Shown here one piece after another: positions 15,760-50,490 of a stretch of DNA of 64,000 nucleotides; position 1 is the first letter of the stretch, and every line of letters starts with the position of its first letter. A program made the translations under genes and the position numbers. The stretch is from an uncultured Acidimicrobiia bacterium (lineage in GTDB: Bacteria; Actinomycetota; Acidimicrobiia; Spongiisociales; JAENVV01): assembly GCA_963698385.1 (NCBI GenBank), contig CAVOQP010000010.1:529518-593517 (forward strand). Reading direction: 5' to 3'. The notes beneath the pieces are model-generated. The model had not been told where the DNA came from, ran no database searches, and saw only the letters and a program-made list of their open reading frames with translations.

Positions 15760-15833
15760 TCCTCCTACCCGCATGATGTCGCCTTCGGCGACGATGCGGG
15801 GGCCCCTTCCTCCCACCTGCGGCGGGAGGACAG
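15760..15833 (+). repeat. Double-hairpin repeat, family 2, copy 1 (candidate terminator / structured 3' element)
   Basis: TCCTCCTACCCGCATGATGTCGCCTTCGGCGACGATGCGGGGGCC..TCCTCCCACCTGCGGCGGGAGGACAG, immediately after the stop of the DUF1801 gene. About 85% identical to 50416..50490. Confidence 0.6.
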
Positions 15834-15998
15834 CAGAGTCCGACCGCGCAGCGGTCAACGTCAACGTCAACCCGGAGCCTGAGGCTCGACGCCTGACCGG
15901 CTTCGTCAGCAGGAGGGGACCGGGACGAGAACGAAGGAGCGTCGACCCGCTTCTTGGTCGAAGCTGAAGTCGACGTTGACGTACGGCCGCTGGGCCGG

Positions 15999-16565
15999 TC
16001 AGCGACACACTCCGAGCCAACGGAACGTCCCGTCGACGAGGGCGTATTGGCCGATGCCGTCATCGAACCTCTGACCTTGGAACACGAACGAGACCGCGGC
16101 CGAATAGACGTCGGGGATCCCGGCCACGGTATCCGGGCCCGCCGTGACCTCGTGCAGGGTGTACTCGGAGAGGCCCATGATCTCGTTCTCCACCCATGAC
16201 CGACACAGGTCCTCGCCACCCAGGGCGACCACGTCGGGGTGGAGCCGAAGCCACACGAACTCGACGTCGCCCTCCTCCAACGCGTCGGCGAACAACAGGA
16301 CGAACTCCTCGACCGTCTCGGCCTCCTCCACGGAGACAACGGTGGTGGTCGTGGTGGATGTCGTCGATGTCGTGGATGTCGTCGATGTGGTCGCGACCGA
16401 CGTCGTGGTCGTGATCGCCTCCTCGACCTCCGTCGGCGGCACCGTCGCCAAGGTCGACACAGCGACCTCACTGGTGTCGTCATCGCTGACGTAGCCAACT
16501 ATGCCGATGACGACGGCGATCGCCCCGATCGCCATCATCAGGAGCCCAACACGCTTTCCCGTCAT
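15999..16565 (-). CDS. Membrane-anchored protein with Thr/Ser-rich (STT)n linker
   Basis: N-terminal TM segment LLMMAIGAIAVVIGIV, then an (STT) repeat, then a C-terminal globular part. Confidence 0.5.
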   Translation of the reverse strand: MTGKRVGLLMMAIGAIAVVIGIVGYVSDDDTSEVAVSTLATVPPTEVEEAITTTTSVATTSTTSTTSTTSTTTTTVVSVEEAETVEEFVLLFADALEEGDVEFVWLRLHPDVVALGGEDLCRSWVENEIMGLSEYTLHEVTAGPDTVAGIPDVYSAAVSFVFQGQRFDDGIGQYALVDGTFRWLGVCR

Positions 16566-16644
16566 CCCGTCAACCTACCGGGATCACCCGGCTTGGCTCT
16601 GGACTTCTCCAATAGCGGCTGCCACCCTACGCTTCGTGAGGTCC

Positions 16645-17343
16645 ATGAAGCCTTTTGCCATCGCCGTTGCCTTCGTTGCGTCTGTCCTGGTCATGGCTGC
16701 CGCCACCTGGGCCCCCACCGAGGGGGCGCTCGGCGCGGTTGCGGAGACGACGACCACCGTCGGGGCCCCGGTCACCACCACTCCCATCGCTCCCGCGCCC
16801 ACCACGACCTCGACCTCCACCACGACCACCTCGGTGGCGGTGAGTACCACGACCACCACCACGACGACGACGCTTGCTCCCGCGGCAACGACGCCGAAGC
16901 CCGCTCCAACGACCACCCGCCCGCCACGCCCGGCCACCACCACCACGACCACCACCACCGTGGCCGCCGTCACTCCCCACCACGACCCCGACTTCGCGTC
17001 GGGGATCTTCCAGTACGCCAACTCGGCCCGTTCGGCAGCCGGTGTCGGCACGCTCAAGTGGTCGAGTTCGCTCGCCGGCTACGCCAAGAACTGGGCCAAG
17101 AGGCTGGGCGACTCCGGCGACCTCGGCCACTCCGACTTCGGCTCGCTGCTCGGGACCACCTGGGGCACGGTTGGCGAGAACGTCGCCATGGGGCACCTCA
17201 ACCCAACCGCCATGCACAAGGGCTGGATGGCGTCGAGCAGCCACAAGGCCAATATCATCAACGCCGACTTCACACACGTCGGGACTGCCGTCTGGGTCGA
17301 TGCTTCCGGGACCACCTGGGGCGTCCAGGTGTTCGGCGGCTAA
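16645..17343 (+). CDS. Secreted CAP/SCP/PR-1 domain protein with Thr/Pro-rich linker
   Basis: Signal peptide MKPFAIAVAFVASVLVMAAATWA. C-terminal GENVAMGH...HKANIINADFTHVGTAVW CAP motifs. Confidence 0.75.
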   Translation: MKPFAIAVAFVASVLVMAAATWAPTEGALGAVAETTTTVGAPVTTTPIAPAPTTTSTSTTTTSVAVSTTTTTTTTTLAPAATTPKPAPTTTRPPRPATTTTTTTTVAAVTPHHDPDFASGIFQYANSARSAAGVGTLKWSSSLAGYAKNWAKRLGDSGDLGHSDFGSLLGTTWGTVGENVAMGHLNPTAMHKGWMASSSHKANIINADFTHVGTAVWVDASGTTWGVQVFGG

Positions 17344-17393
17344 TCAACAAAGTTGGGGAACGACATCTCCCCCGTTGCGCCGATGCATGAAGC

Positions 17394-18344
17394 ATGCGCA
17401 ACACCAACCGAGGCTCCCTTGCAGGGGAGACCATCGCCCCCCAACTTCCGCTGGGAGTCCTGGTTCGGCGATGGCTCGTCGTCATCCTTGCCACCGCGGT
17501 ATTCGGAGCGGGACTGTCGGCCGTCGCCGGGTCCTTCCAATCCGCCGAGGCGCCCACTGCTCCCGAGACCAGCCAGGTCGCCGACTCCGTCGACGCCAGT
17601 GCTGCGACACAGGAGATCCCCATCTCCACCACCCCCTCTCCAAGTTCCGACGTGACCCGGTCAGCCGCCGCCTCGACCACCTCCCCCACGACCACGGGAG
17701 CACCAGCCCCGACCACGGAGGCACCGGCCTCGACCACCACCTCCCAGGACACCACGCCTGCGGTTGATGAGACCCTCCCGCCAGACACCGACTCGTCGAT
17801 TCCCGCCACGACCGTTGCGCCCGCCGCCACCACCACCACGCCAGCACCAACCACAACGACCACCGTTACCCCGGCAACGACCACCACGACAGCCCCGGTG
17901 ACCACCACCACGGCGGCACCGACGACCACCACCACGGCAGGCCCGACGACGACCACCACTGTCGCCCCCGCGGCCCCGGCCTCGGGCGACACCGCCTTCG
18001 CCTCGTCGCTCGTCTCGCTCGCCAACAAGGCGAGGGCATCGGAGGGCATAGCCCCCCTCAGCGTCTCAAGCTCCCTCACCAGCTACGCCCAGGACTGGGC
18101 GGCGCACCTCGCTGACACCCTCACCCTCAGCCACTCGAACATCGGGAGCCTGCTCGGGGCATGGTCGACCGTTGGTGAGAACGTCGCCGCCGGGCACTCA
18201 TCGGCCCAGGTGATGCACACGGCGTGGATGAACTCGGCAGGTCACCGGGCCAACATCCTGAACCCGAACTTCACGCACATCGGGGTTGGTGTCGTGATCG
18301 ACGCCAACGGCGCTCCCAGGGGCGTCCAGGTCTTCGGCGGATAG
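17394..18344 (+). CDS. Secreted CAP/SCP/PR-1 domain protein, tandem paralog
   Basis: C-terminal domain about 60% identical to the previous gene (GENVAAGH..HRANILNPNFTHIGVGV), with a long T/P/A linker. Confidence 0.75.
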   Translation: MRNTNRGSLAGETIAPQLPLGVLVRRWLVVILATAVFGAGLSAVAGSFQSAEAPTAPETSQVADSVDASAATQEIPISTTPSPSSDVTRSAAASTTSPTTTGAPAPTTEAPASTTTSQDTTPAVDETLPPDTDSSIPATTVAPAATTTTPAPTTTTTVTPATTTTTAPVTTTTAAPTTTTTAGPTTTTTVAPAAPASGDTAFASSLVSLANKARASEGIAPLSVSSSLTSYAQDWAAHLADTLTLSHSNIGSLLGAWSTVGENVAAGHSSAQVMHTAWMNSAGHRANILNPNFTHIGVGVVIDANGAPRGVQVFGG

Positions 18345-18542
18345 GGACGGCGAGCGTCAAGCGCCATCGTCCGAGCGCAGCCAGGACTCATGTGGGTAGG
18401 GGGGTCGTAGTTTGTCGCACGGTCTTGACGCGGCGCCAACACTCACCGCCCCCACCTCCCCCTCCGCTTCGCCACGGGGCCGAGGCCTTCCTGCTCGGCA
18501 CGCGGGGACAGATGGTTGGTCCTTGGCGCTTTGCGGCCGGGG

Positions 18543-18559
18543 CGTAGGATCGCCCGATG
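18543..18559 (+). promoter_or_regulatory. Candidate leaderless promoter motif CGTAGGATCGCCCGATG
   Basis: 17/17 identical to 6443..6459. The TAGGAT hexamer lies 6 nt before the ATG. Confidence 0.45.
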
Positions 18560-20668
18560 CATCGAATCGCCGGCCTCATCGTCTCCCATCACAAGCGAGT
18601 ACTTGCCCTCACGGCGCTGATGACCATCGGCAGTGCCCTCATGTTCTTCCGGATCCAGGTCAACGCCGACATCTCCGCGTTCATGTCCGGGAGCGTCGAG
18701 GGCGAGTCGTTCGCTCTCCTCCAGGAGAAGTACGAAACGGCCGACCCGGTCAACGTCATGCTCTCCCTGCCCGATGGCGAGACGTTCCTCGACGGACCCG
18801 CGCTGGCCGACCTGGCCCGGGCGCGCGACACGCTTCTGTCCATGGAGGAGGTGGCGCTCGTCACGAGCCTCGTCCCCGACACCAACCCGCTGACGGGCGC
18901 CGCGCTCACTCCTGAGTTCCTCGAGGCACTGCCGGCATTCGCATTGGGTCAGATGATGGGAACGAACCCCTTCGCCGACCTCCTCCTGAGTGAGGACGGG
19001 CAGCACACCCTGCTGATGGCGGTCCCGGCCGGGGAACCGGTCCAGGCTGCCCACGCAATCGCCGACCTCGACCTCGGGGACCGATTCGACGTCACGGTCT
19101 CGGGCAACCCGGCGATCTATGCCGAGATCACGCAGATCCTCAGCCTCGTACTCCTCTTCATCCCGCCGGTCGTCGTCCTCCTCCTCCTGGCGACCTTCTA
19201 CGCCAACGTCGGGAGCCGGAAGCTGACCATCCTGTCGATCTTCCCGGCATTGGTCGGGACCATCTGGACCTTCGGGATGATCTTCGCCCTCGGCAAGGAG
19301 ATCGACCTCGTCACTGTGATCGTCCCGATCTTCGTAATCGTCATGGGATCGGCCGACGGCCTCCACTTCGTCACGCACTTCCAGGACGTGGCTGCCCGGA
19401 CCGACGATCCCACCGAACGGGTCCGCTCGACACTCGAACAGGTCGGCAAGCCGATGATCCTCACGACCATCTCGACGGCCGTCGGGTTCCTCTCCCTCTT
19501 CGTGGCGGACGTGGGCCCGATCCGGCAGATGGGTCTCTACGCGGCGATCGGTATCACGTTCGCGGGGATCATCTCGTTCTTCTCGCTCCCGGCCGTCCTC
19601 ACTCGGATCGACGTGGTGGGCCGGGCCCATCCCCCACGGATCGGCGGCGCGCTCATCCGCGGGCTGCAGGCATCGGTCCGCACGCGGGTCCCCGCCGTCG
19701 TCCTCACCCTGCTCCTGGTGGCCTTCGCCGTCATCTTCATCCCTCGCATCCAGGTGGACTCCGATCCGCTCTTCATGTTCGGACCCGACCATGAGGTGCG
19801 CAACGCGTTCCAGGCGACGGAGAGCCTCTTCGGCGGAGCGACACCCCTCGTAGGTGAGTTCGTGTTCGATCCGACCGACCCGACCGGCTCTCTCGCGGCC
19901 GCCCGGGACGCCACTGCCCGGCTGGAGGCCTTGCCGGAGGTGCGCACGGTGCTCTCCGTCGCATCACTCGAAGGGGTGCTCTCGCCCGACGTGGTACGCG
20001 GCGTTCTCGCCGGTGAGGTCGACCTTCCGACCGGCAAGATGGTGAGCGAAGACGGCCTCAGGTTCATGGTCCTGACCCAAGACCTCGGAACCGACGGACT
20101 CGATGCGCTTCGGGCGGCAGCCGCATCCGATCCCACCATTCGGTCGCTCACCGGGATGACGGTGATCTGGGCTGCGATGGCCGACTTGGTCCTCGACGCC
20201 CAAGTGTGGTCGGTGACAGCCGCCTTGGTGCTGGTGGCGCTCATGCTCTTCGTCACGTATCGGAAGGTCCGCCCCACCGTGGTGGCCATCGTGCCGCTCG
20301 TGCTGACCGTGGGGGCGCTCCTCGGCTTCATCTCCGCGACCGGCATCAACCTCAACCTCATCACCGCGGTTGCCTCATCGATCGTGATCGGAGTGGGGAT
20401 CGACTACGCGATCCACTTCGTCGCAGCGATCCAGCATGCGGAGAAAGACGGTCCAGGGTATGTCCACCGAGCTCTCCGATCCGCGGGACGACCGATCGTC
20501 GCCAATGCCCTCGGTATTGCCATAGGGCTCACCGGACTCTGGTTGAGTCCCCTCCAGCCGCACCACCACATCTCACTCATCATGTGGTTCTCGATGGTGG
20601 TGGCCGCACTTGCCGCCCTCATCATCATTCCGGCACTCCTGCCCCGGGACGCCGTGGCCGACGGATAG
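18557..20668 (+). CDS. MMPL/RND-superfamily membrane transporter
   Basis: 703 aa with two 6-TM bundles (SSD-like) and periplasmic loops. Confidence 0.85.
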   Translation: MHRIAGLIVSHHKRVLALTALMTIGSALMFFRIQVNADISAFMSGSVEGESFALLQEKYETADPVNVMLSLPDGETFLDGPALADLARARDTLLSMEEVALVTSLVPDTNPLTGAALTPEFLEALPAFALGQMMGTNPFADLLLSEDGQHTLLMAVPAGEPVQAAHAIADLDLGDRFDVTVSGNPAIYAEITQILSLVLLFIPPVVVLLLLATFYANVGSRKLTILSIFPALVGTIWTFGMIFALGKEIDLVTVIVPIFVIVMGSADGLHFVTHFQDVAARTDDPTERVRSTLEQVGKPMILTTISTAVGFLSLFVADVGPIRQMGLYAAIGITFAGIISFFSLPAVLTRIDVVGRAHPPRIGGALIRGLQASVRTRVPAVVLTLLLVAFAVIFIPRIQVDSDPLFMFGPDHEVRNAFQATESLFGGATPLVGEFVFDPTDPTGSLAAARDATARLEALPEVRTVLSVASLEGVLSPDVVRGVLAGEVDLPTGKMVSEDGLRFMVLTQDLGTDGLDALRAAAASDPTIRSLTGMTVIWAAMADLVLDAQVWSVTAALVLVALMLFVTYRKVRPTVVAIVPLVLTVGALLGFISATGINLNLITAVASSIVIGVGIDYAIHFVAAIQHAEKDGPGYVHRALRSAGRPIVANALGIAIGLTGLWLSPLQPHHHISLIMWFSMVVAALAALIIIPALLPRDAVADG

Positions 20669-20731
20669 CCACATCGCGGGGCGCTCCCTGCCGCGAGGCT
20701 GAACGCACCGCCCGGCGCTCTGCCCAAAGGG

Positions 20732-23302
20732 GTGCAGGGCTACGCTTTGCCCATGAGAAGGGCATTCCGGGTCCACCATGACCCGGCACCGGGAGAGTCG
20801 GTTCAGCTCATCATCGACTACCTCCCCGAAGGGATGCGACCCATCGGAGGCGGCTGGTGGGAAGCCGCCGCCGACGTCGACGAGGGTTCCGTCTACTACT
20901 ACCGCGTGGTGGATGAGGCCGGTCGGGTCACCCGGATCGACCACGGACGGCCCCGGAGGCCCCTGGGGGAGTCCGTGATCATCGACCGCTGGCGCGCCGC
21001 CGATCCTGCCCGCATGGCCCGCCACTCGGCGCTCTTCAAGTCCGGCATCGGCCGGCACTGGCCGGAGGCTCAAGGCGCCTCCGGACTGCGCCTCACCATT
21101 CGCCTCCACGAGCCATCGATCGAACCGGGGAACAGGGTGGCGGTCGTCGGCTCGGATCCCGTGTTGGGCGCATGGGACGAGTCCGAGGCAAGGCGGATGA
21201 CCGCCAGCCCCTACCCGTGGTGGACCCTCACGCTCGACCTCGAGCACCCCGAGGAGCCCGGCGAGTACTCCTACCTGGTGATCGATACCGACGGTGGCGT
21301 CGTGCACCGCGATCCGATGCGGCACCCGCTCCCCCCTTGCCCGGCCTCGACCATTGTCAACGACGAGGCGATCGTCGGGCTCCCGGACTGGCGAGGCACC
21401 GGCGTGGCGGTCCCGGTGTTCGCCCTCCGGACGGAGCGCTCCTTCGGGGTGGGTGAGTTCCGGGACCTGATGCCGTTCGCCGATTGGGCGGCGTCGTGCG
21501 GGATCTCGCTCATCCAGGTCCTGCCCCTGAATGACACCATCAAGGACCACTCCTGGGGGGACTCCTACCCATACAACCCGATCTCGGTGCGGGCCCTCCA
21601 TCCGCTCTACATGGATCTCTTCGACCTCCCGGGCTCCGCCAACCTCGACCCGGGCATCAGGGACCTCGGACGCGCGTTGAACCGAGAGCCCGAGGTGGCT
21701 TACGAGCGGGTCATGGAGGCCAAGCTGGCCATCCTCCGCGAGTTGTTCGCCGAAGCTCCACCCGACACCGCCGAGCAGGGCTTCCGGTCGGAAAACTGGG
21801 AGTGGCTGGGTCCCTACGCCCACTGGTGCTCACTGCGGGACCATTTCGGAACATCCAACATGACCCAGTGGGGTGCCGACGAGCACTACGATCCGGCGCG
21901 CCTCGAGGCAGCCCTGGCCGATGCCGAACACCGCGACCTCGAGTTCTGGTGCTGGGTCCAGTACCACCTCCATCGCCAACTCGGCCGAGCCGTTGAGCAC
22001 ATCCACAGCCTGGGAATCGCACTCAAGGGTGACCTCCCGATCGGGGTGGCTCCCAACAGCGTCGAGACCTGGACCCGTCCCGAACTGTTCCACCTCGGCA
22101 CGCAGGCGGGCGCCCCGCCCGACGACTTCGCCATCCGCGGCCAGAACTGGGGCTTCCCCACGTACGACTGGGACGCCATGGCGGCCGACGAATACCAGTG
22201 GTGGAAGGACCGATTCGTCGCCATGCACGCCTACGCCGACGCCTACCGCATCGACCACATCCTCGGGTTCTTCCGGATCTGGGAGATCCCACGCGACGCC
22301 GTGGACGGACTCCTCGGCGTCTTCAGGCCATGCAAACCGCTCACCCGAGCCGAGGTCGAAGCCCACCTCCCGCAGGCGGACCTGGGTTGGCTCATCCGAC
22401 CGATGATCGACCTGGATGTCCTCCATCGCCGCTTCGGGGACCAAGCCCCATCCGTCCGCGAGCGCTGCTTCACCGGGGAGGACGGCGATCTCCGATTCAG
22501 GCCGACGTTCTCCAACCAGCGTGCCGTGGCCGATGCGTCGATCGCCGGGGCATTCGACGGCCTCGGCAATCGGTCGACGGTCACCCGCCACCTGCTGGAC
22601 CTCCGGGCGGATGCCCCCCTGATGGAGGTCGAAGGGGGCTACCACCCACGCATCTCCTGGCAGGCAACCGAGGCGTACCAGCGCCTCCCCGGCCATGAAA
22701 AGGGTGCATTCGACACGATGGCGACGGACTTCTTCCACCATCGGCACACTGGCCTGTGGCGGGCCCAGGGCATTCGCAGTCTCCCGGCCGTGGTCGACGT
22801 CACACCGCTGCTCCCCTGCGGCGAGGTCCTGGGGATGGTCCCCGACATGGTCCCCGCACTCATGGAGGAGCTTGGGATCCTCGGCCTCGAAATCGAGCGT
22901 ATGCCCAAGACCCCGGGGGCGTGGCGAGCCGACCCGTCATCGGCGCCATACCTGTCGGTGGTGAGCCCGGCCACCCATGACATGGCGCCCCTCCGTCTGT
23001 GGTGGGCAGAGGATCGTTCAGCCGCCCAGCGCTATTGGACCGAGGTGCTGGGGCGTGACGGGGAAGCACCGGAGCGAGCCTCGGACGAGGTGTGCCGGGT
23101 GATCATCGGCAACCATTTGTCCTCACCGGCGATGCTGGCAGTCGTGCAACTCCAGGACCTGCTGGCCACCGTCCCCGAGGCCCGGAGACCGGACATCGCG
23201 GCGGAACGGGTGAATGTGCCATCGGATCGCCAGCATCGGTGGCGGTACCGATGCCACCTCGATGTGGGTGATCTCCCGGTGCGGGACTGGCAGCGGACCT
23301 AG
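20732..23302 (+). CDS. malQ: 4-alpha-glucanotransferase (GH77, amylomaltase) with N-terminal CBM20 starch-binding domain
   Basis: CBM20 motif GNRVAVVGSDPVLGAWDESEARRM..WW, then GH77 motifs GVGEFRDL, PLNDT, YRIDHILGFFRIWEIP. Confidence 0.85.
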   Translation: MQGYALPMRRAFRVHHDPAPGESVQLIIDYLPEGMRPIGGGWWEAAADVDEGSVYYYRVVDEAGRVTRIDHGRPRRPLGESVIIDRWRAADPARMARHSALFKSGIGRHWPEAQGASGLRLTIRLHEPSIEPGNRVAVVGSDPVLGAWDESEARRMTASPYPWWTLTLDLEHPEEPGEYSYLVIDTDGGVVHRDPMRHPLPPCPASTIVNDEAIVGLPDWRGTGVAVPVFALRTERSFGVGEFRDLMPFADWAASCGISLIQVLPLNDTIKDHSWGDSYPYNPISVRALHPLYMDLFDLPGSANLDPGIRDLGRALNREPEVAYERVMEAKLAILRELFAEAPPDTAEQGFRSENWEWLGPYAHWCSLRDHFGTSNMTQWGADEHYDPARLEAALADAEHRDLEFWCWVQYHLHRQLGRAVEHIHSLGIALKGDLPIGVAPNSVETWTRPELFHLGTQAGAPPDDFAIRGQNWGFPTYDWDAMAADEYQWWKDRFVAMHAYADAYRIDHILGFFRIWEIPRDAVDGLLGVFRPCKPLTRAEVEAHLPQADLGWLIRPMIDLDVLHRRFGDQAPSVRERCFTGEDGDLRFRPTFSNQRAVADASIAGAFDGLGNRSTVTRHLLDLRADAPLMEVEGGYHPRISWQATEAYQRLPGHEKGAFDTMATDFFHHRHTGLWRAQGIRSLPAVVDVTPLLPCGEVLGMVPDMVPALMEELGILGLEIERMPKTPGAWRADPSSAPYLSVVSPATHDMAPLRLWWAEDRSAAQRYWTEVLGRDGEAPERASDEVCRVIIGNHLSSPAMLAVVQLQDLLATVPEARRPDIAAERVNVPSDRQHRWRYRCHLDVGDLPVRDWQRT

Positions 23303-23475
23303 ACCGCGAGTTCGTCGTCGTCGGTGATCGCGGCGTCCAATTCGACGGAGACCATGTTCTCGCGGCGGATGTCCATCGATTTGATGCGCTCGGTGAGCGA
23401 GACGCCGCGTGTGAAGCCTCCGAGGCGCTCCCGGAGCGCTGATCCGACCAATTCCGGTACTCGATCCTGATCCAC
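23299..23475 (-). CDS. Hypothetical small acidic protein (58 aa)
   Basis: AAGGAGGA RBS then a GTG start. Has no recognisable motif. Confidence 0.3.
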   Translation of the reverse strand: MDQDRVPELVGSALRERLGGFTRGVSLTERIKSMDIRRENMVSVELDAAITDDDELAV

Positions 23476-23560
23476 GCTTCCTCCTTGCATGGATATGACG
23501 ACGGCCGAGCCGTCATGCAGATCCTACCGCCTCGAAGCAGGCCGCGGGTGGATTGGCGGC

Positions 23561-25950: not shown

Positions 25951-25976
25951 GGCGGTCGGGCGCACGACTGACGAAG

Positions 25977-26046
25977 TAGGACTCGGGACTCGGGACTTGG
26001 GACTCGGGACTCGGGACTCGGGACTCGCACCTGGCACCTCGCACGC
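25977..26046. repeat. Tandem heptamer array (GGGACTC) x about 7, then (GCACCTN) x about 3
   Basis: GGACTCGGGACTCGGGACTTGGGACTCGGGACTCGGGACTCGGGACTCGCACCTGGCACCTCGCAC. Confidence 0.8.
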
Positions 26047-36344: not shown

Positions 36345-36445
36345 GGAGTCCCAAGTCCCAAGTCCCGAGTCCCAACAAGCGTTAATCGTCAAGGTACGAG
36401 TCCTGAGCCCCCAGTCCTCGGTCCTCGGTCCTCGGTCCTTGGCTG
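36345..36445. repeat. Tandem heptamer arrays: (GAGTCCC, the reverse complement of GGGACTC) x about 4, then (GTCCTCG) x about 4
   Basis: GGGAGTCCCAAGTCCCAAGTCCCGAGTCCCAAC ... CAGTCCTCGGTCCTCGGTCCTCGGTCCTTGG, between convergent genes. Confidence 0.75.
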
Positions 36446-42300: not shown

Positions 42301-43158
42301 TCAGATGCAGGACGGGCCCTGCGGGTACTTCACGGACTTACGGACGGCACGAGATGTCTCGATGATCTGGCCGGTGCTGATGATGAACCGGTTGCGATCG
42401 TTCACCGCCACGACGAAGCGGTCGAGGTTGCGAGGCGCCGGGCCGGCGATGTATTCACCGGCGGCGTTGTACTTCGATCCGTGGCAGGGGCACTCGAATC
42501 CCTGTGACGGTGTGCACCACGGGACCCGGCAGCCGAGGTGCACGCAGGTCTGGTAGAGGGCGACCAGGTTGTGGTCGACCGTCGAGTTTCCCTCGAACTG
42601 GGACCCGGTCACCGACTCCGGCAGCATTGGGATGACGTAGGCGCGGGCCTCCGGGAGGAACAGCGGGCTGATGGTCCCGTCGGCGTTGAGGACCTTGGCC
42701 AGGATCTCGTCGGCATCGCCACCATCGATGTCCGCCCCGAAGCCGCCCTTCACCTTCGGCCACATGAAGGCAAAGGCGCTCATCCCGAAACCGGCGAGGA
42801 AGGTCCCCCACATGGCAAGGAGGGCACGGTTCAGGAACATGCGGCGGGTGACGCCTTGCTCGTCGGGGGTGGCCTCGACGTAGTCCACGACGACGGGGGA
42901 CTCCTCGGCCACTTCGGTGAGGACCATCGTGTCGCCGGTCCCGGCGTCCGCCACGGCATCCGCCACTGCGTGCTCCTCGGCGACCTGGGCAGTGGCGATC
43001 ATCACCGGGACCTCGGAGCGCTTGTCGGCCTTGGCGGCCTTCTCGTCGACCCTCGCCTTCCAGCCCGGGTCGTTGCTCCGGCGGTAGGCAATCGTGAAGG
43101 CGGCCGCAGCAGCAAGGACGGCAACCGCCGCCAGCGCAATCGGGAGCAGGTCGGTCAT
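42301..43158 (-). CDS. Rieske [2Fe-2S] iron-sulfur subunit of a cytochrome bc/b6f-type complex
   Basis: CVHLGC...CPCHGS Rieske boxes with an N-terminal TM anchor. The long N-terminal extension of ORF 42301..43473 is rejected. Confidence 0.85.
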   Translation of the reverse strand: MTDLLPIALAAVAVLAAAAAFTIAYRRSNDPGWKARVDEKAAKADKRSEVPVMIATAQVAEEHAVADAVADAGTGDTMVLTEVAEESPVVVDYVEATPDEQGVTRRMFLNRALLAMWGTFLAGFGMSAFAFMWPKVKGGFGADIDGGDADEILAKVLNADGTISPLFLPEARAYVIPMLPESVTGSQFEGNSTVDHNLVALYQTCVHLGCRVPWCTPSQGFECPCHGSKYNAAGEYIAGPAPRNLDRFVVAVNDRNRFIISTGQIIETSRAVRKSVKYPQGPSCI

Positions 43159-43967
43159 CAGTGGCCTCCGAGGTCCGCGAAGTGGACCCAGTCCTTGAGA
43201 TCGTCGAAGAAGATCCCATCGTTCCACGGGTAGACGAAGTTGAAGCCCGGACCCCGGAAGAGGACACCGAACATCGTGAGCGTCGCCGCGCCCATCAGGA
43301 AGAACGTGAACATGAAGATCACGAACTTGCGATCGGATGGCTTGGTCGAAGGGTTCTTGTCGATGTAGGGCACGGCCATGAGCCCGAACAGACCGGTGAT
43401 GAGCGGGACCGACACACCTGCGACCGCAGGGTCGAAGTAGGAAAGGAGTTCCTGCAAGCCGAGGAAGTACCACGGGGCCTTCGACGGGTTGGGGGTGGCG
43501 TTGAAGTTCGCGGCCTCGAGCAGCGGAGCCTGGAGGATGGTCGAGAGAACGATGAGGATCCCGGTGACCGCGAGAAGAGCCGCGAACTCGATGATCATCA
43601 GGTGCGGCCAGGTGTTCACCTTGTCCTGGGGTTCGACCTTGGCCTGCTGAATCGCCTTGGCCTTGACGACGGTGAGGAGACGCTGGGTCCGCACACCCTC
43701 CGGGCCCGAGACCGCCGGGGCGACCGGGCGCACCGAGGTGGCTTTCGACGGGTCACCGGTCATCACCACTGCGGCAGGCACCGGTGCAGCCGCAGGAGCA
43801 GCCGCGACAGCCGGTGCCGGTTCCGCGGCGGGTACGGCCGCAACGGGCGCGGCAGTCGGGGGCGCTTCGCCCTTCAGTTGGGCCATCGCTTCCTCGACCG
43901 AGATGCCGAGTGCTTTCGCCTTGGCCTCCGCCGACCGGCGGAGTAGGTGTTCGGGGAGTTCAGCCAT
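43158..43967 (-). CDS. Cytochrome b C-terminal (subunit IV-like) protein with extra N-terminal cytoplasmic module
   Basis: PWYFLGLQELLSYF motif of cytochrome b6f subunit IV / cytochrome b C-terminus. N-terminus MAELPEHLLRRSAEAKAKALGISVEE resembles the N-termini of 47560 and 48343. Confidence 0.75.
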   Translation of the reverse strand: MAELPEHLLRRSAEAKAKALGISVEEAMAQLKGEAPPTAAPVAAVPAAEPAPAVAAAPAAAPVPAAVVMTGDPSKATSVRPVAPAVSGPEGVRTQRLLTVVKAKAIQQAKVEPQDKVNTWPHLMIIEFAALLAVTGILIVLSTILQAPLLEAANFNATPNPSKAPWYFLGLQELLSYFDPAVAGVSVPLITGLFGLMAVPYIDKNPSTKPSDRKFVIFMFTFFLMGAATLTMFGVLFRGPGFNFVYPWNDGIFFDDLKDWVHFADLGGH

Positions 43968-43979
43968 CGCACCTTCTCC

Positions 43980-44741
43980 TTACAGCGGCCCAGAGATGCC
44001 GCCATCCTTCCGGACACGCCAGAAGTGGACGGCCATGAAGATGACGATGATGAATGGGAAGAAGAGGACATGGAGCACGTACCAGCGGAGGAGGGTGTCG
44101 GCCGACACCACCGCCGAGCCCAGCAGGGTGAACTTCACCTGGCTCCCGAAGACCGGCACGAACGACGCCATGTTCGTTCCCACGGTGACGGCCCAGAGGG
44201 CCAACTGGTCCCACGGCAGGAGGTAGCCGGTGAAGGAGAGAAGGAGAGTGAGGAGCAGGAGCACGACGCCGACCACCCAGTTGAACTCGCGGGGCGGCTT
44301 GTAGGCACCGTGGTAGAAGACCCGGCTCATGTGGAGGAAGACCGTGAGCACCATGAAGTGGGCTCCCCACCGGTGCATGTTCCGCACGAGGGACCCGAAC
44401 GCCACGGAGGTCGAGAGCTCCTGGATGTCCTGGTAGGCAGCCTCGGCGGTCGGGGCGTAATAGAACATGAGGAAGATGCCGGTGATCGTCAGCAGGATGA
44501 AGAGGAAGAAGCTGAGGCCCCCGAGGCACAGGGTGTAGGAGAGCCGAACGCTGTGCCGCTTCACCTTGACCGGGTGGAGGTGATAGAGCACGTTGTTCAT
44601 GATCACGTAGGAGCGGTTGCGGGGGCTGTCCGTGTACCCCTTCTTGAAGGGGGACCCCGGCCGGAGGATCGAGTCCATGAGCGGACTGCCATGCAGGGCC
44701 GACGGAAGCTCTTTGACCTTGTTGAGGAGTTTCTGCACCAC
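43980..44741 (-). CDS. Cytochrome b6-like (N-terminal half of a split cytochrome b; bis-His heme b ligands)
   Basis: 4 TM with His pairs ([10 protein letters not shown], ...HVLFFPF...HFW). GTG start at VVQKLLNKV is an inference. Confidence 0.75.
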
Positions 44742-44746
44742 TGTTC

Positions 44747-45199
44747 TCACATCCCGCGAATGCCGTAGACGAACCCGTTCTTGTGGTCCCGCTCGCCCGA
44801 GTCGATCTCCCACGGGGCGGGGAGACCTTCCTGCTCGGCGGTGGCGGAGACCGAACCTTCGAACTTGCCGAGGGTGATCACGCCCGTGGGGCACCGGTCG
44901 ATGCAGAGCGCGCACCGGGTGCAGGTGTCCTCGTCCACGAGGAAGAAGCCGAACGCCTCGGGGTCATCGTGGGGATCGGCCACACCGGATGCATCGCGGA
45001 TGGCGTCGATCGAGAGGTAGTGGATGCACTTCCAGGGACAGATATCGACGCAGCCCTCACACAGGATGCATTCGGCTTGGTCGATGTGGAGGAACTGCTT
45101 GGGTCTGACCTGCTTGAGCAGGTAGTCGCCTTCGACCAGGGCGAGGGTGTAGTCGTCGCGGATCGGGGGGACTTCGAAGTAGACCTCGGTGCGGGCCAT
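44747..45199 (-). CDS. 2x[4Fe-4S] ferredoxin-type subunit
   Basis: [12 protein letters not shown] and [16 protein letters not shown] overlap with the upstream gene. Confidence 0.8.
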
Positions 45200-45831
45200 C
45201 AGGCGCCGGCCTTCTTCAGCGGGCGGCCATACGGGGAGATCGCATCGCCCTCGGCCACCCTCGGTGTCGTCTTCCCCCACCCCTGGATCTTGAAAGCGAA
45301 GTACAGGACCGCCGCCAGCGAGGCGAGGTGGTAGCCACCGAGGACCATGTCCTTGAGGGCTGCGTAGGAAATGCTGATCGGGTTGTTGAGCACGATCCAC
45401 TTGGGGATCGTGAAGGCGATCTTCTGGGAGGTGAAACCGAGGGGGCCCTGGGTGAGGTTCAGCCACTCGGACGGGATGACGCCCCACACGAGGATGAGTT
45501 CGATGAAGGCCAGCCAAGCTGCGAAGCCTGCCCGTGCCCACGTCATCGGCTTGTTGGCCACCCACTGCAGCGCGGCACCGGCCAGGAGGAACTGTGAACC
45601 GCCGATCGCCACCAACTGCCCGGCGGTGAAGACGACCCAGTGGCGGGGAACCCAGGTGAGGTAGGTCGCGAAGTGCTCCTCCCCGGGAGCCGTGCCATCG
45701 GGGGCGAGCCCGGCGTGGGCAAAGAAGATCCCGACCACCAACGCGCCGAAGCCCAACACCATGAGCGCCCACGCGATGCGTGAGCGTTGCTTGTCGGTGA
45801 GGTTGGCAAGTCGATGAATCAGTCGGTCCAT
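45199..45831 (-). CDS. Hypothetical membrane protein (about 5 TM), first gene of the bc-complex operon
   Basis: MDRLIHRLANLTDKQRSRIAWALMVLGFGALVVGIFFA... Confidence 0.45.
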   Translation of the reverse strand: MDRLIHRLANLTDKQRSRIAWALMVLGFGALVVGIFFAHAGLAPDGTAPGEEHFATYLTWVPRHWVVFTAGQLVAIGGSQFLLAGAALQWVANKPMTWARAGFAAWLAFIELILVWGVIPSEWLNLTQGPLGFTSQKIAFTIPKWIVLNNPISISYAALKDMVLGGYHLASLAAVLYFAFKIQGWGKTTPRVAEGDAISPYGRPLKKAGA

Positions 45832-46153
45832 GCGAGCCGTCGATGCCTGTCTTGGGTCGGTGTTCCTGTTCGCGGCGATGCCCGTGGGAGGCCAGGGCGT
45901 CGGCGCCATGTTTAGCAGAATCACCCTACCGACATCGAAACGGGATCAAGGTCCGGATCGCCGTCGAGGACGGGTCCCGGGGCGTCGGAGGCCGGGACCG
46001 AGCGGCGGCTGGAAGGCGGGTTTTGACGCTCCCCATCCGGAGAGCGAGAATGCGTGACGCCGGCGCGGGTTCGCGTCGGGCGAGGGAGCATGAAGGAGTC
46101 GCGGACCGGTAGGCTGCGGCCGTCTCCGACCGAGGAAAGAGAAGGAGTTGGGG

Positions 46154-47563
46154 TTGGCCACTGACACAGAAGCGGCACACGCGGTGGATGGTGCCACCGT
46201 CGTGACCCGCTGGGCGCTGGTGGCGGGCGCTGTCCTGATCGCCTTGGCCGCCTTCCTCCACTTCAGCGCATGGCTCTCGCTGGTCTTCCCGCCGGTCTTC
46301 GGCGGGTTGGGATTCGCGCAATTCGGACGACTGAAACCCATGGCCGATGCCGTCCTGATGTTCGGTGGCTTCTACTTCGTCAATACCGGCGCCCTCTACA
46401 TCCTCCTCCCGCGCCTCACCGGCACCACACTGCGGGATGTCGGCCTCGCGCGTGCCAACACCCTGTGGACGCTGCTCGTGGGCGTCGCCTCGGTCGTCGC
46501 CGTGGGTATCGGACTCGGCGACGGAAGGGCCGGCTTCGAGTTCCCGCTCATCCTCGACGCCGCCTATCTCACAACCCTCTTCGTCCCGGCCTGGATCACC
46601 CGGCGTGCATTCTCGACTCGAACCGAGGACTCGCTCCACCCGACCGTGTGGGCCCTGATGACGGGGTTCCTCGCCCTGGCGGTTGCCCTCGTTGTCGCCA
46701 ACTTCCCCCTCACGGAGGCCACCGGAGGTTGGATCCAAGTGGCGTTCGGACGCGGCCTCGTGCTGTGGACCTGGGTGCTCGGGTCGGGCGTCGGCATCGC
46801 CTGGTACGTGGTGCCCAAGGCATCCGGTCGTCCGCTGTTCAGTCGTCAACTGGCTCAGATCGTCGTCTTCTCGATGCTTCTCCCACCCGCGGTCGCAGGG
46901 CTGGCCGGGCTGGCATTCGGCCCGGTCGCCGATTGGGCCGAGACCATCGGCGTCGTCTTCCGATTCTCCCTACTGGTCCCCGCGCTCGCAGTGCCGGCCG
47001 GGATCCTCGGCACCATCAACGGGGCCGATGGGCCACGGATCGCCTCGTCGCCCGCCGTTCGTACTGCGCTCGCCGGCTCTTGGCTGCTCGCCGGAGGCGG
47101 CGTCGCCAGCGCGCTCTCCGCCTTTCCCTACGTCCAGTCCGTTGTCGGACTCACGACCTTCGAGGACGGAACCATGGCGCTCCTGGTAGGAGCCGCCACG
47201 CTCTTCGCCGCTTCGTTCATCTACCACTGCCTCCCGGAGGTGACCGGCAAACCCCTCTTCTCGACGACGTTGGCCATCGACCACATGAAGCTCGTGCTGT
47301 GGGGGTCGGGCTTGACTGCCCTCTTCCTCTGGTACGCCGGGATCTACTCCGGTGCCGGGTTCCGGGGCGGCGCCCTCGGGGGACTGTGGACGGCGGTCGG
47401 TGACGGATTCGGTGATGCCACGGACGGGGCGATCCCCCTCTACATGATCGCACTCCTCGGGATGGCGTTGGTGGCGGCCGGCCAGGTCGCCTTCATGATC
47501 AACGTCCTCGGCACGACCCGCGGCGGTGCGGCCACGACCGAGTCCGAGGAGGTGGCCGCATGA
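46154..47563 (+). CDS. 12-TM membrane protein with three internal 4-TM sequence repeats; occupies the ccoN-like position but lacks the heme-copper-oxidase His ligand set
   Basis: GAAGGAG RBS. 12 hydrophobic segments. Repeated motif Y.LLPRLTGTTL / WYVVPKASGRPLFSRQL / YHCLPEVTGKPLFSTTL, one per third. Only 4 His in the TM region and no HH pair. Its stop overlaps the ATG of the FixO-like gene. Confidence 0.55.
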   Translation: MATDTEAAHAVDGATVVTRWALVAGAVLIALAAFLHFSAWLSLVFPPVFGGLGFAQFGRLKPMADAVLMFGGFYFVNTGALYILLPRLTGTTLRDVGLARANTLWTLLVGVASVVAVGIGLGDGRAGFEFPLILDAAYLTTLFVPAWITRRAFSTRTEDSLHPTVWALMTGFLALAVALVVANFPLTEATGGWIQVAFGRGLVLWTWVLGSGVGIAWYVVPKASGRPLFSRQLAQIVVFSMLLPPAVAGLAGLAFGPVADWAETIGVVFRFSLLVPALAVPAGILGTINGADGPRIASSPAVRTALAGSWLLAGGGVASALSAFPYVQSVVGLTTFEDGTMALLVGAATLFAASFIYHCLPEVTGKPLFSTTLAIDHMKLVLWGSGLTALFLWYAGIYSGAGFRGGALGGLWTAVGDGFGDATDGAIPLYMIALLGMALVAAGQVAFMINVLGTTRGGAATTESEEVAA

Positions 47564-48336
47564 GTGAGTACCTCGCAGCCGCGGCCGCCAACATGGGCAT
47601 GCCCGAGTCACTCGTGATGCGCTCCGCCGAGGCCAAGGCCAAGGCTGGCGGTGTCACCGTCGAGGACCTCCTCAGGGAATGGGCGGGCGGGGAACCGGCG
47701 ACTGCGTCCGCGCCTCCGTCCGCGCCCGCGTCTGCAGCTTCGTCTGCCCCGGAGCCTGTGTCTGCGGCTGCTCCAGCCGCTCCCGCCGCGCCGGTGGTCG
47801 TCACAGCCGCTGCGACACGACGGCACGTCGTGGCCCGCAAGGACCCGGATGCTGCCCCCCTCCTCGTAGGCGCCCGACAGGGACACATCCGGATGCTCTT
47901 GACCATCATGACGGTGCTCGTCGTCGGCTCAGCCCTCGGGGCGCTCCTGCCGACCCAGGCCGCCCGCCAGGACGTGAACAACGCCATCGGCTCACAACCC
48001 GACTACACCGACCAAGCCATCAGCGGGCGGGACATCTACCTGGCCGAGGGGTGCTGGACATGCCACACGATGGTGGTCAGGGCCACCGCCACCGACTACG
48101 GCCTCGGCAAGGTCACCACCCCGAAGGACGTTGCGCCGGTTGCCGGTGAGTCGCTCGGGGTGCGGAGGATCGGTCCCGACCTCGCCCACATCGGAAGTCG
48201 CCGAGACCCGGCCTTCATCTTCAACTTCCTCGTCGACCCCGGCTCGGTGGCCGAAGGTGCCCGGCACCCCGGCTATGCGTTCCTTTCCGAAGACGAACTC
48301 GGCTCGCTGACCGCGTTCCTGATCGAGACGAAGTGA
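47560..48336 (+). CDS. ccoO: FixO/CcoO-like membrane-anchored mono-heme cytochrome c (cbb3 oxidase subunit II family) with N-terminal extension
   Basis: GRDIYLAEGCWTCHT...RRIGPDLAHIGSR...PGYAFL aligns with the FixO motifs GRNIYIREGCYLCHS...KRTGPDLARVG...PGYAFL. Carries about 100 extra N-terminal residues. Confidence 0.8.
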   Translation: MSEYLAAAAANMGMPESLVMRSAEAKAKAGGVTVEDLLREWAGGEPATASAPPSAPASAASSAPEPVSAAAPAAPAAPVVVTAAATRRHVVARKDPDAAPLLVGARQGHIRMLLTIMTVLVVGSALGALLPTQAARQDVNNAIGSQPDYTDQAISGRDIYLAEGCWTCHTMVVRATATDYGLGKVTTPKDVAPVAGESLGVRRIGPDLAHIGSRRDPAFIFNFLVDPGSVAEGARHPGYAFLSEDELGSLTAFLIETK

Positions 48337-48342
48337 GTGCCG

Positions 48343-49269
48343 ATGAGTGAATACCTCGCAGCCGCGGCCGCCAAGATGGGCATGCCCGAGTCACTCGTCA
48401 TGCGCTCCGCCGAGGCCAAGGCCAAGGCCGGTGGCGTCACCGTCGAGGACCTGCTCCGCGAATGGGCGGGCGGGGAAGCAGCGTCAGCAGGAAAGCCCGA
48501 GCCCGGGCCCGAGCCCAAGGTGCCGGCCGAGCCGGCGTCCGAGGAGGCGGCAGCACCTGCCGCTCCGTCTGTGCCGGTCGCCGAGGCAGGGCCGGTCGAG
48601 GTGGTCTACGAGACCCTGCCGACCCCGGCGACCGTGACCCCCGAAGAAGCCATGGCCTGGGACCAGGTGACCACCATCGCTTCGGACGACGTGCGGGAGC
48701 GACCCGGGTCGGTGATCCCCCGCTGGCTGGCAGCGGCGTTCGTCATCATTCCAGTGCTGGCCCTCGGCTACCTCTTCATGAACACCGATGGCCTCACGTG
48801 CGGTGAGTCCGGCCTCCTTGCCTCGGACTTCGAAGGCAACCTCGCCAACTGCGACATGACTGCGTACGTGCCGGGAGGAGGGTCCGAGGGCGCGCTCGTC
48901 ACTGCAGCTTTCGCCGAAGGACAGGGGCTCTATTCGTCGTGCGTGTCGTGCCACGGAGCGAGCGGGGAAGGTGGTGTGGGCCCCGCATTCGGGGACGTGA
49001 CCACGACCTTTGCCGCCTGCTCCGACCACATCGAGTGGGTCAAGGTTGGCTCGGCGGGTTGGCCGACCGGGACATACGGGGACATTGGGAAACCGGTCGT
49101 CGGGGGCATGCCGGGGTTCTTCGCATCGATGTCCGAGGACCAACTCCAGTCCATCGCCCTCTACGAGCGGGTCCAGTTCGGTGGGGAAGCACTCACCGAC
49201 GCCGGGGTCAACTGCGGCATCGTCGAGGCTGAACCCGCCGAGGGCGAAGCTCCCGCTGAGGACGCCTGA
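48343..49269 (+). CDS. Membrane-anchored mono-heme cytochrome c with the same N-terminal module
   Basis: N-terminal 47 aa about 90% identical to 47560. A/P linker, TM segment, CVSCHG heme motif. Confidence 0.75.
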   Translation: MSEYLAAAAAKMGMPESLVMRSAEAKAKAGGVTVEDLLREWAGGEAASAGKPEPGPEPKVPAEPASEEAAAPAAPSVPVAEAGPVEVVYETLPTPATVTPEEAMAWDQVTTIASDDVRERPGSVIPRWLAAAFVIIPVLALGYLFMNTDGLTCGESGLLASDFEGNLANCDMTAYVPGGGSEGALVTAAFAEGQGLYSSCVSCHGASGEGGVGPAFGDVTTTFAACSDHIEWVKVGSAGWPTGTYGDIGKPVVGGMPGFFASMSEDQLQSIALYERVQFGGEALTDAGVNCGIVEAEPAEGEAPAEDA

Positions 49270-49372
49270 CCGCACACCCCCATCCGTCTTGGGGTCATTC
49301 GAGTCGACACATCGCGATCAAGCGACCCCAGAACGGCGCTAGGTCGGGTGTGGCCGATACCATCGGTCGACG

Positions 49373-50203
49373 ATGTCACTCCCCATCTCGTTCCTCTCCG
49401 ACTTCGGCCTGGCCGACGAGTTCGTGGGGGTCGTGCACGGCGTCATCGCAACCCTGGCCCCCGGTTCGCGGGTGATCGATGTGAACCACAACGTCGCCCC
49501 CGGCGACGTCAGGGGAGGCGCACTCTCACTCATGCGGGCGATCCAATACCTCCCGGAGGGGGTCGCACTGGCGGTCGTCGACCCGGGAGTGGGGACCGAC
49601 CGGCGAGCGATCGCAATCCAGACGGAGTGGGGCTACTTCGTCGGCCCCGACAATGGGCTTCTCTCGCCGGCCGTTGCGATGGTCGGCGGGGCGCTGGGCG
49701 CCGTCTCGATCGAGAACGCCGATGCTCGACTCCCTGCCACCGGCGCCACCTTCCACGGACGCGACGTGTTCGCTCCGGCAGCCGCGCTCCTCGCGGCTGG
49801 CGAGACCGGTGTCGACGAACTCGGACCCCGGCTCGATACCGAGCAACTCATCCCGATGCTCCTCCCCCTCCCGGAGTTCCAGGCAGGGGCTGTCAAAGGG
49901 ACGACCTGGTGGATCGACCACTTCGGGAACGTCCAGACGAACCTCTCACCCGCCGACCTGGCGACCATCGATCTCGTGGAGGGCGGGGAGGTTGCCCTGC
50001 GGCTCGGGGCCGAGCGGTACGACGTTCCCTGGGTCGGGGCGTACGGCGACGCTCCGGCCGGGACCCTCGTCCTCGTGACCGATTCCCACGGCCTGGTGGC
50101 CATCTCGGCGGTGGGCGGCAGCGCGGCCGATCGCTTGGGTATCGGCCATGACCGGGAGGTCGTATTCAGCCCAAGCAGCCAACTGAAGGTGTACCCCACA
50201 TGA
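49373..50203 (+). CDS. SAM hydroxide adenosyltransferase family protein (DUF62; fluorinase/chlorinase-like fold)
   Basis: ISFLSDFGLADEFVGVVHGVI...VVDPGVGTDRRAIA...WWIDHFGN motifs. Confidence 0.8.
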   Translation: MSLPISFLSDFGLADEFVGVVHGVIATLAPGSRVIDVNHNVAPGDVRGGALSLMRAIQYLPEGVALAVVDPGVGTDRRAIAIQTEWGYFVGPDNGLLSPAVAMVGGALGAVSIENADARLPATGATFHGRDVFAPAAALLAAGETGVDELGPRLDTEQLIPMLLPLPEFQAGAVKGTTWWIDHFGNVQTNLSPADLATIDLVEGGEVALRLGAERYDVPWVGAYGDAPAGTLVLVTDSHGLVAISAVGGSAADRLGIGHDREVVFSPSSQLKVYPT

Positions 50204-50292
50204 GACCTGGGACGACCATCGTCATCGTCGCGCTCCTCCTCCTGCTCTTCGTCGCCGCCGCGATCCTCGCCTGGCAGTTGGGGAGGGTGTGA
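50200..50292 (+). CDS. Possible 30-aa single-TM micro-protein
   Basis: ATGA overlap with the upstream stop. MRPGTTIVIVALLLLLFVAAAILAWQLGRV. Confidence 0.3.
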   Translation: MRPGTTIVIVALLLLLFVAAAILAWQLGRV

Positions 50293-50415
50293 GGAGAGCA
50301 AGATTCCAGGAGCCGCTTCGGCGAGGCCACGGCCACACGCACCGCCCCCCAGGGTGCTGGGGGGAACGGCCCCGCAAGCGAAGCGAGGCGGGTAGGGGGC
50401 CGTACCCGATCAGTG

Positions 50416-50490
50416 CCCTCCTACCCCGCAAGAAGTCGCCTGCGGCGACGATGCGGGGGCCTCTTCCTCCCACCGTCGGTGGGAGGACAG
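50416..50490 (+). repeat. Double-hairpin repeat, family 2, copy 2
   Basis: CCCTCCTACCCCGCAAGAAGTCGCCTGCGGCGACGATGCGGGGGCCTCTTCCTCCCACCGTCGGTGGGAGGACAG. The second stem carries compensatory changes relative to copy 1. Confidence 0.6.

Follow-up and report, generated by a model that had tools for sequence, protein, structure and literature searches.

A probable dispersed intergenic repeat with two hairpins in an uncultured Acidimicrobiia genome

A 64 kb stretch of DNA at 67% GC from an uncultured Acidimicrobiia bacterium (contig CAVOQP010000010.1; hereafter the window, to whose full length all coordinates refer unless another contig is named) carries two copies of an intergenic element of about 80 nt that contains two hairpins, at 15757-15833 and 50410-50493. 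We hold with moderate confidence that this element is the type-A half of a lineage-restricted, dispersed intergenic repeat resembling repetitive extragenic palindromes and the mosaics that they build (REP/BIME), REP doublets that form hairpins (REPINs) or miniature inverted-repeat transposable elements (MITEs). What speaks for a dispersed repeat is that the element is sharply bounded, recurs almost unchanged at unrelated sites of two genomes, is polymorphic by indel, keeps to no particular orientation of the neighbouring genes and comes in inverted pairs of two module types. Homologues of the window's proteins also assign the organism to the Acidimicrobiia. Acidimicrobiia are an abundant, mostly uncultured class of soil and water, in which, to our knowledge, small dispersed repeats have barely been described.

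The type-A element, its fold and a third copy

An earlier note on this DNA had described a repeat in two copies, each with two hairpins, and in this it was right. The window copies are 88.6% identical over 79 nt (blastn E 1.6e-14) and 89% identical over a 66-nt core, and a 37-nt consensus (4 N) had these two sites as its only matches in the window and was found in 0/100 shuffles. Folding placed both hairpins in each copy. The features are listed below, with scores from R1, a covariance model built from three type-A copies, the two of the window and a third on the contig that we call L002.

15757-15833, + strand: type-A copy 1, a solo copy, made up of the head GTGTCCTCCTACC, hairpin 1, the linker GGCCCCTT, hairpin 2 and the tail GGACAG; 102.8 bits with R1
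15768-15800, + strand: hairpin 1 of copy 1, CCCGCAT-GA-TGTCGCC / TTC / GGCGACG-ATGCGGG, 7+7 bp with a 2-nt bulge and a U.G pair at the junction
15808-15830, + strand: hairpin 2 of copy 1, TCCTCCCACC / TGC / GGCGGGAGGA, 10 bp with one A.C mismatch on the + strand that is a G.U pair on the - strand
50410-50493, + strand: type-A copy 2; 108.1 bits with R1
50424-50458, + strand: hairpin 1 of copy 2, 7+6 bp around a 4x2 internal loop, with two pairs opened by two T>A changes relative to copy 1
50465-50487, + strand: hairpin 2 of copy 2, a perfect 10-bp stem, TCCTCCCACC / GTC / GGTGGGAGGA

The type-A plan comprises, over some 80 nt, a C-rich head (CCCTCCTACC), an imperfect palindrome of 33-35 nt within which GTCGCC-N3-GGCGAC is near-invariant, a CCTTCC linker, a 23-nt hairpin formed by a C-arm and a G-arm, and a GGACAGA tail; the ends of a single element read GTCCTCC...GGAGGAC. 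Minimum free energies (MFE) on the + strand were -45.3 kcal/mol for copy 1 (z -2.0) and -45.6 kcal/mol for copy 2 (z -3.8), and on the - strand -48.5 and -48.4 kcal/mol, respectively (z -2.9 for both). The antisense orientation was the more stable in 8/8 elements, because several C.A mismatches become G.U pairs; we draw no conclusion about the strand from this, since G-rich strands generally fold better and inverted pairs put both orientations on any transcript. The whole intergenic regions around the window copies are strongly structured as well (z -4.7 and -4.1). On the 3' side of copy 1, a long-range stem of about 155 nt (GTCAACGTCAACGTCAAC ... GTCGACGTTGACGTAC; 15841-15998) extends as far as the convergent gene's stop, and the spacer in its entirety has a z of -4.1.

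The same note had also claimed that the differences between the copies preserve pairing, and had taken this as a sign of selection on RNA structure. The alignment of the two window copies gives no basis for either statement, as no pair is changed on both sides. The four stem differences (alignment columns 17, 24, 27 and 73) are all one-sided and each breaks a pair in one of the copies: T>A occurs twice in hairpin 1 of copy 2, copy 1 is missing a C, and copy 1 has the A.C mismatch in hairpin 2. The remaining differences fall in loops, the linker and the 5' flank. Across the three type-A copies 95.9% of the cells pair, and there is one double-sided change, C-G to G-C in hairpin 2 of L002, a single swap that is not significant, being reached by 141/500 shuffles.

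The third copy came from one scan of 185,579 representative genomes with an exact pattern of the junction and hairpin 2, in which it was the only further true type-A copy. It lies at positions 322-411 of L002 (contig CAVPMX010000001.1 of an uncultured Actinomycetes metagenome-assembled genome, MAG; coordinates given for L021 refer to the same genome), is 91% identical to copy 1 and 89% to copy 2, and has both hairpins intact, so that the element does not end with the two copies on which the earlier note had based it. Conservation between the window and L002 is confined to about 84 nt with sharp boundaries; no other L002 DNA in 8 kb aligns to the window, and over the 40.7 kb of this contig that we examined, the only other DNA shared with the window is an array of the heptamer GGGACTC. 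This shared array suggests that the two genomes are probably close relatives. By sequence comparison, then, the element occupies non-homologous sites in at least two genomes that are probably close relatives.

The GGGACTC tandem arrays are themselves intergenic, at 25967-26046, 36346-36375 (inverted) and 63461-63573 of the window and at 14944-14994 of L021. More distant relatives carry other 7-nt units, GGTAGCC / CCGGATA on contig L008 (about 2300-2440) and GAGTACG on L012 (5109-5164), and the two L008 arrays are inverted relative to each other.

Other searches yielded no additional copy. One scan of the JGI metagenomes with an exact hairpin 1 pattern gave three matches, all in ordinary coding-like sequence without the element, and a scan of viral contigs with the junction pattern gave two chance matches. 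A six-frame peptide search of a 5.8-billion-protein set for open reading frames (ORFs) called across the element returned 202 candidates, none with E <= 10. A distant blastn of the plasmid collection with the whole insert found no match, and no further copy lies along the 40.7 kb of L002. Rfam 15 had 0 matches in the window at gathering score; the best match below it was ar14, at 19.6 bits against a gathering score of 58.8 (E 0.16), and the other lenient Rfam matches, to miRNA models, were set aside as chance. Readings of the element as an attC site, a CRISPR or a tRNA-like structure were dropped because no features matched them.

The ar14 match bears on a proposal of the earlier note, that the element is a small RNA. 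It could be a trans-acting small RNA gene, or an RNA processed from 3' untranslated regions (UTRs), in which the exposed C-rich head (GCCCUCCUACC) would pair with the Shine-Dalgarno (SD) regions of targets, by analogy with C-rich small RNAs such as 6C or the CCUCCUCCC ('cuckoo'/ar14-type) RNAs of alphaproteobacteria. This would agree with the identity of 89-91% between genomes over sharply bounded ~84 nt, with the weak similarity to ar14 through the CUUCCUCCCA motif and with a head that the MFE folds of copy 2 and L002 leave unpaired. The ar14 score is, however, far under the gathering score, the C-rich motif of the linker lies in a stem and not in a loop, the antisense orientation folds better in every element, and neither a common promoter-like sequence upstream of the three copies nor a terminator within the repeat unit was found. 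In light of these points a small RNA is very unlikely, and the lack of a promoter or terminator shared among the copies speaks directly against the proposal as it was made.

Type-B relatives, composite units and orthologous loci

Beside the L002 copy lies a diverged, inverted relative (L002 148-230, - strand; R1 31 bits, E 4e-7) that we call type B. The plan of type-B modules is that of type A: CC(C/T)CCTACC serves as the C-rich head, pairs of the CCGC/GCGG type close the first hairpin, and a CCTTCC linker, a C-arm/G-arm hairpin and a GG(A/G)GGACAGA tail follow, whereas hairpin 1 is a different one with the core CTCCGCTTCGC. Three further related features were found in the window.

50335-50406, - strand: diverged type-B-like element, paired head-to-head with copy 2 in inverted orientation; the - strand reads GGCCCCCTACCCGC-CTCGCTTCGCTT-GCGGGGCCGTTCCCCCCAG-CACC-CTGGGGGG
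18433-18520, + strand: type-B element with the CTCCGCTTCGC core and an GGGGACAGA tail; weak by score (16.7 bits with the covariance model)
18370-18410, - strand: degenerate A-like 5' half (CCCCCCTACCCACATGAGTCC), head-to-head with the type-B element at 18433; weak, identified by sequence inspection

The partner of copy 2 is likewise weak by score (11.2 bits with the covariance model, and 15.1 bits, E 0.12) and draws its support from the architecture that it shares and from L002, where the arrangement recurs. The element at 18433-18520, which lies between the gene 17394-18344 (+) and the MMPL gene 18557-20668 (+), was independently matched to the L002 type-B element by blastn, with 78% identity over 59 nt.

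The inverted, head-to-head arrangement of A and B thus occurs at 50335-50493 and 18370-18520 of the window and at 148-411 of L002. Counting the degenerate 18370-18410, an inverted type-B module accompanies three of the four type-A occurrences, copy 1 being the singlet, and the element first reported is therefore one half of a composite. The composite is 140-260 nt long. In L002 its outward ends are inverted repeats (TTGTCTGTCC...GGACAGACAA); matching terminal ends are absent from the window pair 50335-50493.

The second match of the genome scan was an analogous head-to-head pair on a contig of a Hyphomicrobiales MAG (L001, JAAURV010000242.1; 4144-4318), built on the same plan with identical 15-nt heads (CACCCTCACCTCCCC) and filling the spacer from the stop of one gene to the SD and ATG of the next. 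Its members score 26.9 and 24.5 bits, against less than 15 bits for the best unrelated full-length match in about 200 kb. One of them was selected by our own search pattern, and we therefore treat this resemblance across phyla as unexplained and not as homology; it may reflect convergence, horizontal spread or a binning error. Over six A, B and L001 members together, 94.5% of the cells are paired and 13/25 pairs show double changes, a level reached by 0/500 shuffles and approached by no slid control; the alignment was fitted to the model, so that the test is lenient and 13/25 is an upper bound.

Orthologous loci were compared on relatives' contigs that carry the SAM-hydrolase and Glrx-like genes flanking copy 2 (L008, L010, L011 and L012; 74-79% protein identity to the window). 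The stretch 50293-50506, about 214 nt that hold the B(-)/A(+) pair, runs in the window from the stop of a conserved mini-ORF to a conserved hairpin, and L010 and L011 have 8 nt there; L008 has an unrelated heptamer-repeat insert of about 200 nt at the same place. R1 found no element in the orthologous SAM-hydrolase/Glrx-like loci of these relatives. Because the relatives are distant (79% protein identity), this presence/absence shows an indel and not a transposition caught in the act. Homologues of the DUF1801 gene that precedes copy 1 (78-83% identity) were found on eight related contigs with the same TAG stop and no element after it; synteny is not conserved at these loci, and they show only the absence of the element after the same stop.

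The palindromes could also act at the level of DNA, as operators or as sites for nucleoid proteins or recombinases, the RNA folds being incidental. The near-invariant GTCGCC-N3-GGCGAC of hairpin 1 and stems that are kept equally on both strands would suit a protein-binding site, and REP/BIME elements are binding sites for gyrase, IHF and Pol I. The genes flanking the copies, on the other hand, have no evident common function, stems of 10 and 14-15 bp exceed the usual length of operators, and in the type-B and L001 elements unrelated hairpins take the place of hairpin 1 with the architecture unchanged. We consider such a binding site very improbable indeed.

Several observations weigh against a dispersed mobile repeat. 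The copy number looks low, with 2 type-A and about 2 weak B-like elements in the 64 kb of the window, one pair in 40.7 kb of L002 and no element in about 70 kb of other relatives' contigs, and the exact-pattern scans of representative genomes and JGI metagenomes gave only one further true copy; classic REPs number hundreds per genome. No target-site duplication flanks the three type-A copies or the insertion 50293-50506, whose boundaries are known only to within a few nt. A Pfam scan of 48 window proteins found no transposase and no REP-associated tyrosine transposase (RAYT), the window being a small part of the genome; its genes are those of a core chromosome (IF-1, the nos cluster, cbb3 oxidase, bc1, GreA and MgtE). 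The predicted fold of an A/B pair keeps four local hairpins, the partners being too diverged for one long hairpin of the REPIN type. Finally, the six-member alignment takes in the L001 elements, and the way in which these were found may account for part of their apparent homology.

Gene context and possible roles

Real genes were told from spurious ORFs by profiling GC at the third codon position (GC3), and all copies lie outside GC3-supported ORFs. On the + strand the TAG stop (15755-15757) of the DUF1801 gene (15305/15230-15757; the true start is probably 15305, and it was the 150-aa form that was found) runs straight into copy 1, and the next gene is convergent (15999-16565, - strand) and ends 165 nt further on. 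Copy 2 sits in a 464-nt spacer between co-directional genes, 210 nt past the stop of the SAM-hydrolase gene (49373-50203) and 118 nt past that of a conserved 30-aa mini-ORF (50200-50292, + strand). It ends 13 nt before a conserved hairpin at 50507-50536 and lies 175 nt upstream of a glutaredoxin-like gene (50668-50919, + strand; GC3 0.87) whose orthologues match the Pfam family Glrx-like. The L002 copy lies between divergent genes, one ThiS/MoaD-like and the other for an M20 peptidase. The contexts of the three type-A copies are therefore unlike (convergent, co-directional and divergent), and their flanking genes are unrelated in function. The earlier statement that both window copies sit just downstream of plus-strand genes is right in part: it holds for copy 1, at the DUF1801 stop, whereas copy 2 is separated from the SAM-hydrolase stop and stands ahead of the glutaredoxin-like gene, which the earlier note had missed.

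Some neighbours of the copies merit a record of their own. The mini-ORF overlaps the SAM-hydrolase stop (ATGA) and encodes a hydrophobic 30-aa product, MRPGTTIVIVALLLLLFVAAAILAWQLGRV, probably a small membrane peptide; it is called in L008, L010 and L011 and aligned in L012. After the hairpin 50507-50536, which keeps its pairing in L008 with a different sequence, the region 50507-50640 holds a block of about 95 nt (GGGCGGGCTGGGAGGCTTCCTGTCAGGACCCGGCGCATCCGGGTGTCTGGG...CACTCGCT) that is almost 100% identical in the spacers of L008, L010 and L011, whereas the proteins flanking it are only ~79% identical. The block folds as a long imperfect hairpin upstream of the glutaredoxin-like gene, and the region, without an Rfam match, may be an undescribed leader or small RNA.

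A different repeat of the window, of 82 nt with nested palindromes (GAACCCAGGGTTC; GAGACCACCTGGAGGTGGTCTC), occurs at 8813-8894, 11208-11289 and 15171-15252 with 74-87% identity among the copies. Each copy stands just 5' of a gene start, those of a GMC oxidoreductase, an Fe-S/FAD electron-transfer subunit and DUF1801, and the repeat could be an operator or promoter module. Since the copy at 15171-15252 precedes the DUF1801 start, that gene is flanked by the 82-nt repeat upstream and the type-A element downstream. A recoding signal of the PYLIS/SECIS kind after the TAG of this gene was considered and rejected: the frame downstream has a low GC3 (0.71) and makes no protein sense, and the stop is ancestral in homologues.

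The place of copy 1 and the fold of both copies would suit a dedicated, factor-independent terminator without a U-tract ('I-shaped' or tandem-hairpin, possibly bidirectional), copied to a few gene ends and kept there by selection. Copy 1 stands at the stop of a + strand gene and between convergent genes, copy 2 follows the SAM-hydrolase/mini-ORF operon, and both strands form very stable hairpins. Neither strand has a T-run after either hairpin, and a scan of the regions of both copies found no sigma-70-like promoter and no canonical hairpin and T-run terminator (0 terminator-like sites). The conserved hairpin 50507-50536 at the end of the operon has no T-run either, which suggests that terminators of this lineage may be U-less. 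The missing U-tract is also a point against termination, and so are the relatives, which end the same operon with the hairpin 50507-50536 alone and so would make the element redundant at copy 2. The L002 copy, moreover, has no co-directional gene upstream of it and ends 7 nt before a possible start codon, a position between divergent genes and just upstream of a gene start that misfits the terminator or 3'-UTR element proposed in the earlier note. Taken together, a dedicated terminator appears improbable.

Viewed from the genes that follow, the element might instead be a cis-acting 5' leader, in which hairpin 2 would hide the strong Shine-Dalgarno sequence GGGAGGA and CCUCC-type motifs in the head and the linker would serve as alternative anti-SD sequences, in the manner of a thermometer or a switch. 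In L002 7 nt separate the GGGAGGA arm from an in-frame TTG of the ThiS/MoaD-like gene, though translation could equally well start at a GTG 48 nt downstream; in L001 a permease-like ORF has its ATG 10 nt past the equivalent hairpin, and copy 2 and the type-B element at 18433 are upstream of + strand genes. The head can pair with the tail in place of the linker, and does so in copy 1's centroid fold. Yet neither an ORF nor a start codon lies downstream of copy 1 on the + strand, and copy 2 is 175 nt from the Glrx-like start, with the conserved hairpin and the conserved block in between and orthologues that lack the element. Both alternative pairings keep the SD closed and no 'on' state is evident, and the downstream genes are functionally unrelated. 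The tail points outward in every inverted pair, so that an element facing a gene start is expected by geometry alone. There is, in our judgement, only a slim chance that the element is such a leader.

The ThiS/MoaD-like protein has been called in public annotation as 412 aa (L021 12135-13373, that is L002 229-1467), with a reading frame that runs across the type-A element, and the real start is probably the TTG at L002 409 or the GTG at 457. The protein appears to join a ThiS domain to a long membrane region.

Under the dispersed-repeat reading, copies would spread through a transposase acting in trans, or through recombination or gene conversion, neither of which was seen here. Any role in RNA is modelled on enterobacterial REP/BIME elements, which protect upstream mRNA from 3' exonucleases and in some cases act in pausing or termination. 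By that analogy, where the element is transcribed in 3' UTRs or intercistronic regions, its two stable hairpins (about -45 kcal/mol) could be barriers to 3'-5' exonucleases and, in a secondary role, weak sites of pausing or termination without a U-tract. A GGGAGGA arm that is kept paired would leave no stray ribosome-binding site. A bolder version, which we regard as speculative and rather unlikely, makes the A/B composite an undescribed class of non-autonomous mobile element in Acidimicrobiia, with a hairpin-masked Shine-Dalgarno and anti-SD mimics, that ends the upstream message and sets or gates downstream translation wherever it inserts; the pair in the Hyphomicrobiales MAG would be its architectural counterpart.

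The finding opens no long-standing question. A defined family with the models R1/R2 would aid the annotation of intergenic DNA, where gene callers now run ORFs through the element, as in the 412-aa call of L021, and the element could be used as a marker for strain typing. If copies do affect mRNA ends or translation, they would contribute to regulatory differences among close relatives.

Comparison with known systems

Among known RNAs, the element recalls ar14 (the CCUCCUCCC-motif small RNAs of Rhizobiales) and the actinobacterial 6C RNA in its multiple hairpins and C-rich, anti-SD-like motifs. It is a member of neither: it scores 19.6 against 58.8 bits for ar14, the motif is in a stem and not in a loop, and promoter and terminator are missing. 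Intrinsic terminators without a U-tract ('I-shaped', tandem-hairpin) have been proposed for Mycobacterium and other high-GC Actinobacteria, and their function is disputed. The element shares with them the phylum, GC-rich hairpins without a T-run and a site right after a stop codon and between convergent genes; unlike them it is a repeated module and not a locus-specific hairpin, and one copy precedes a gene and has none to terminate.

The likeness to MITEs such as Correia/NEMIS of Neisseria and RUP/BOX of pneumococci lies in a composite of 140-260 nt whose outward ends are inverted repeats in L002, in the presence/absence polymorphism between related genomes and in insertion into 3' UTRs and intercistronic regions, where MITEs are co-transcribed. 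The differences are that no target-site duplication was detected, that no parent insertion sequence with the same ends is known and that the terminal repeats are not conserved in the window pair 50335-50493.

REPINs of Pseudomonas are mobilised by RAYT transposases (IS200-like Y1), and the literature that we searched holds no report of a REP/RAYT system in Actinobacteria. By the definition of REPs and REPINs that we took from PMC3337134, the element departs from them in several respects. GT[AG]G is expected 5' of the palindrome, whereas here a GTAG is found on the antisense strand 3' of hairpin 1, the sense strand having CTAC 5' of it. Each module combines two different hairpins with C-rich segments that are conserved and single-stranded, paired modules have diverged and keep separate hairpins in the predicted fold instead of forming a single long one, the copy number appears low, and no RAYT was found in the 64 kb examined. 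The family is therefore not a demonstrated member of the REP/BIME, REPIN or MITE families. What it shares with REP/BIME and REPIN elements is a short, extragenic, GC-rich imperfect palindrome, hairpin 1 (33-35 nt) being of REP size and hairpin 2 spanning 23 nt, together with a GTAG tetranucleotide that abuts hairpin 1 on the antisense strand (GCGGGGTAGGAGG). Like REP/BIME elements it sits after stop codons and in intercistronic spacers and is conserved in its lineage at non-syntenic sites, and its inverted pairs of two related yet distinct module types, A and B, parallel the Y and Z REPs of BIMEs. In sum, the kind of element is familiar, and this example of it, from a class that has received little study, is undescribed.

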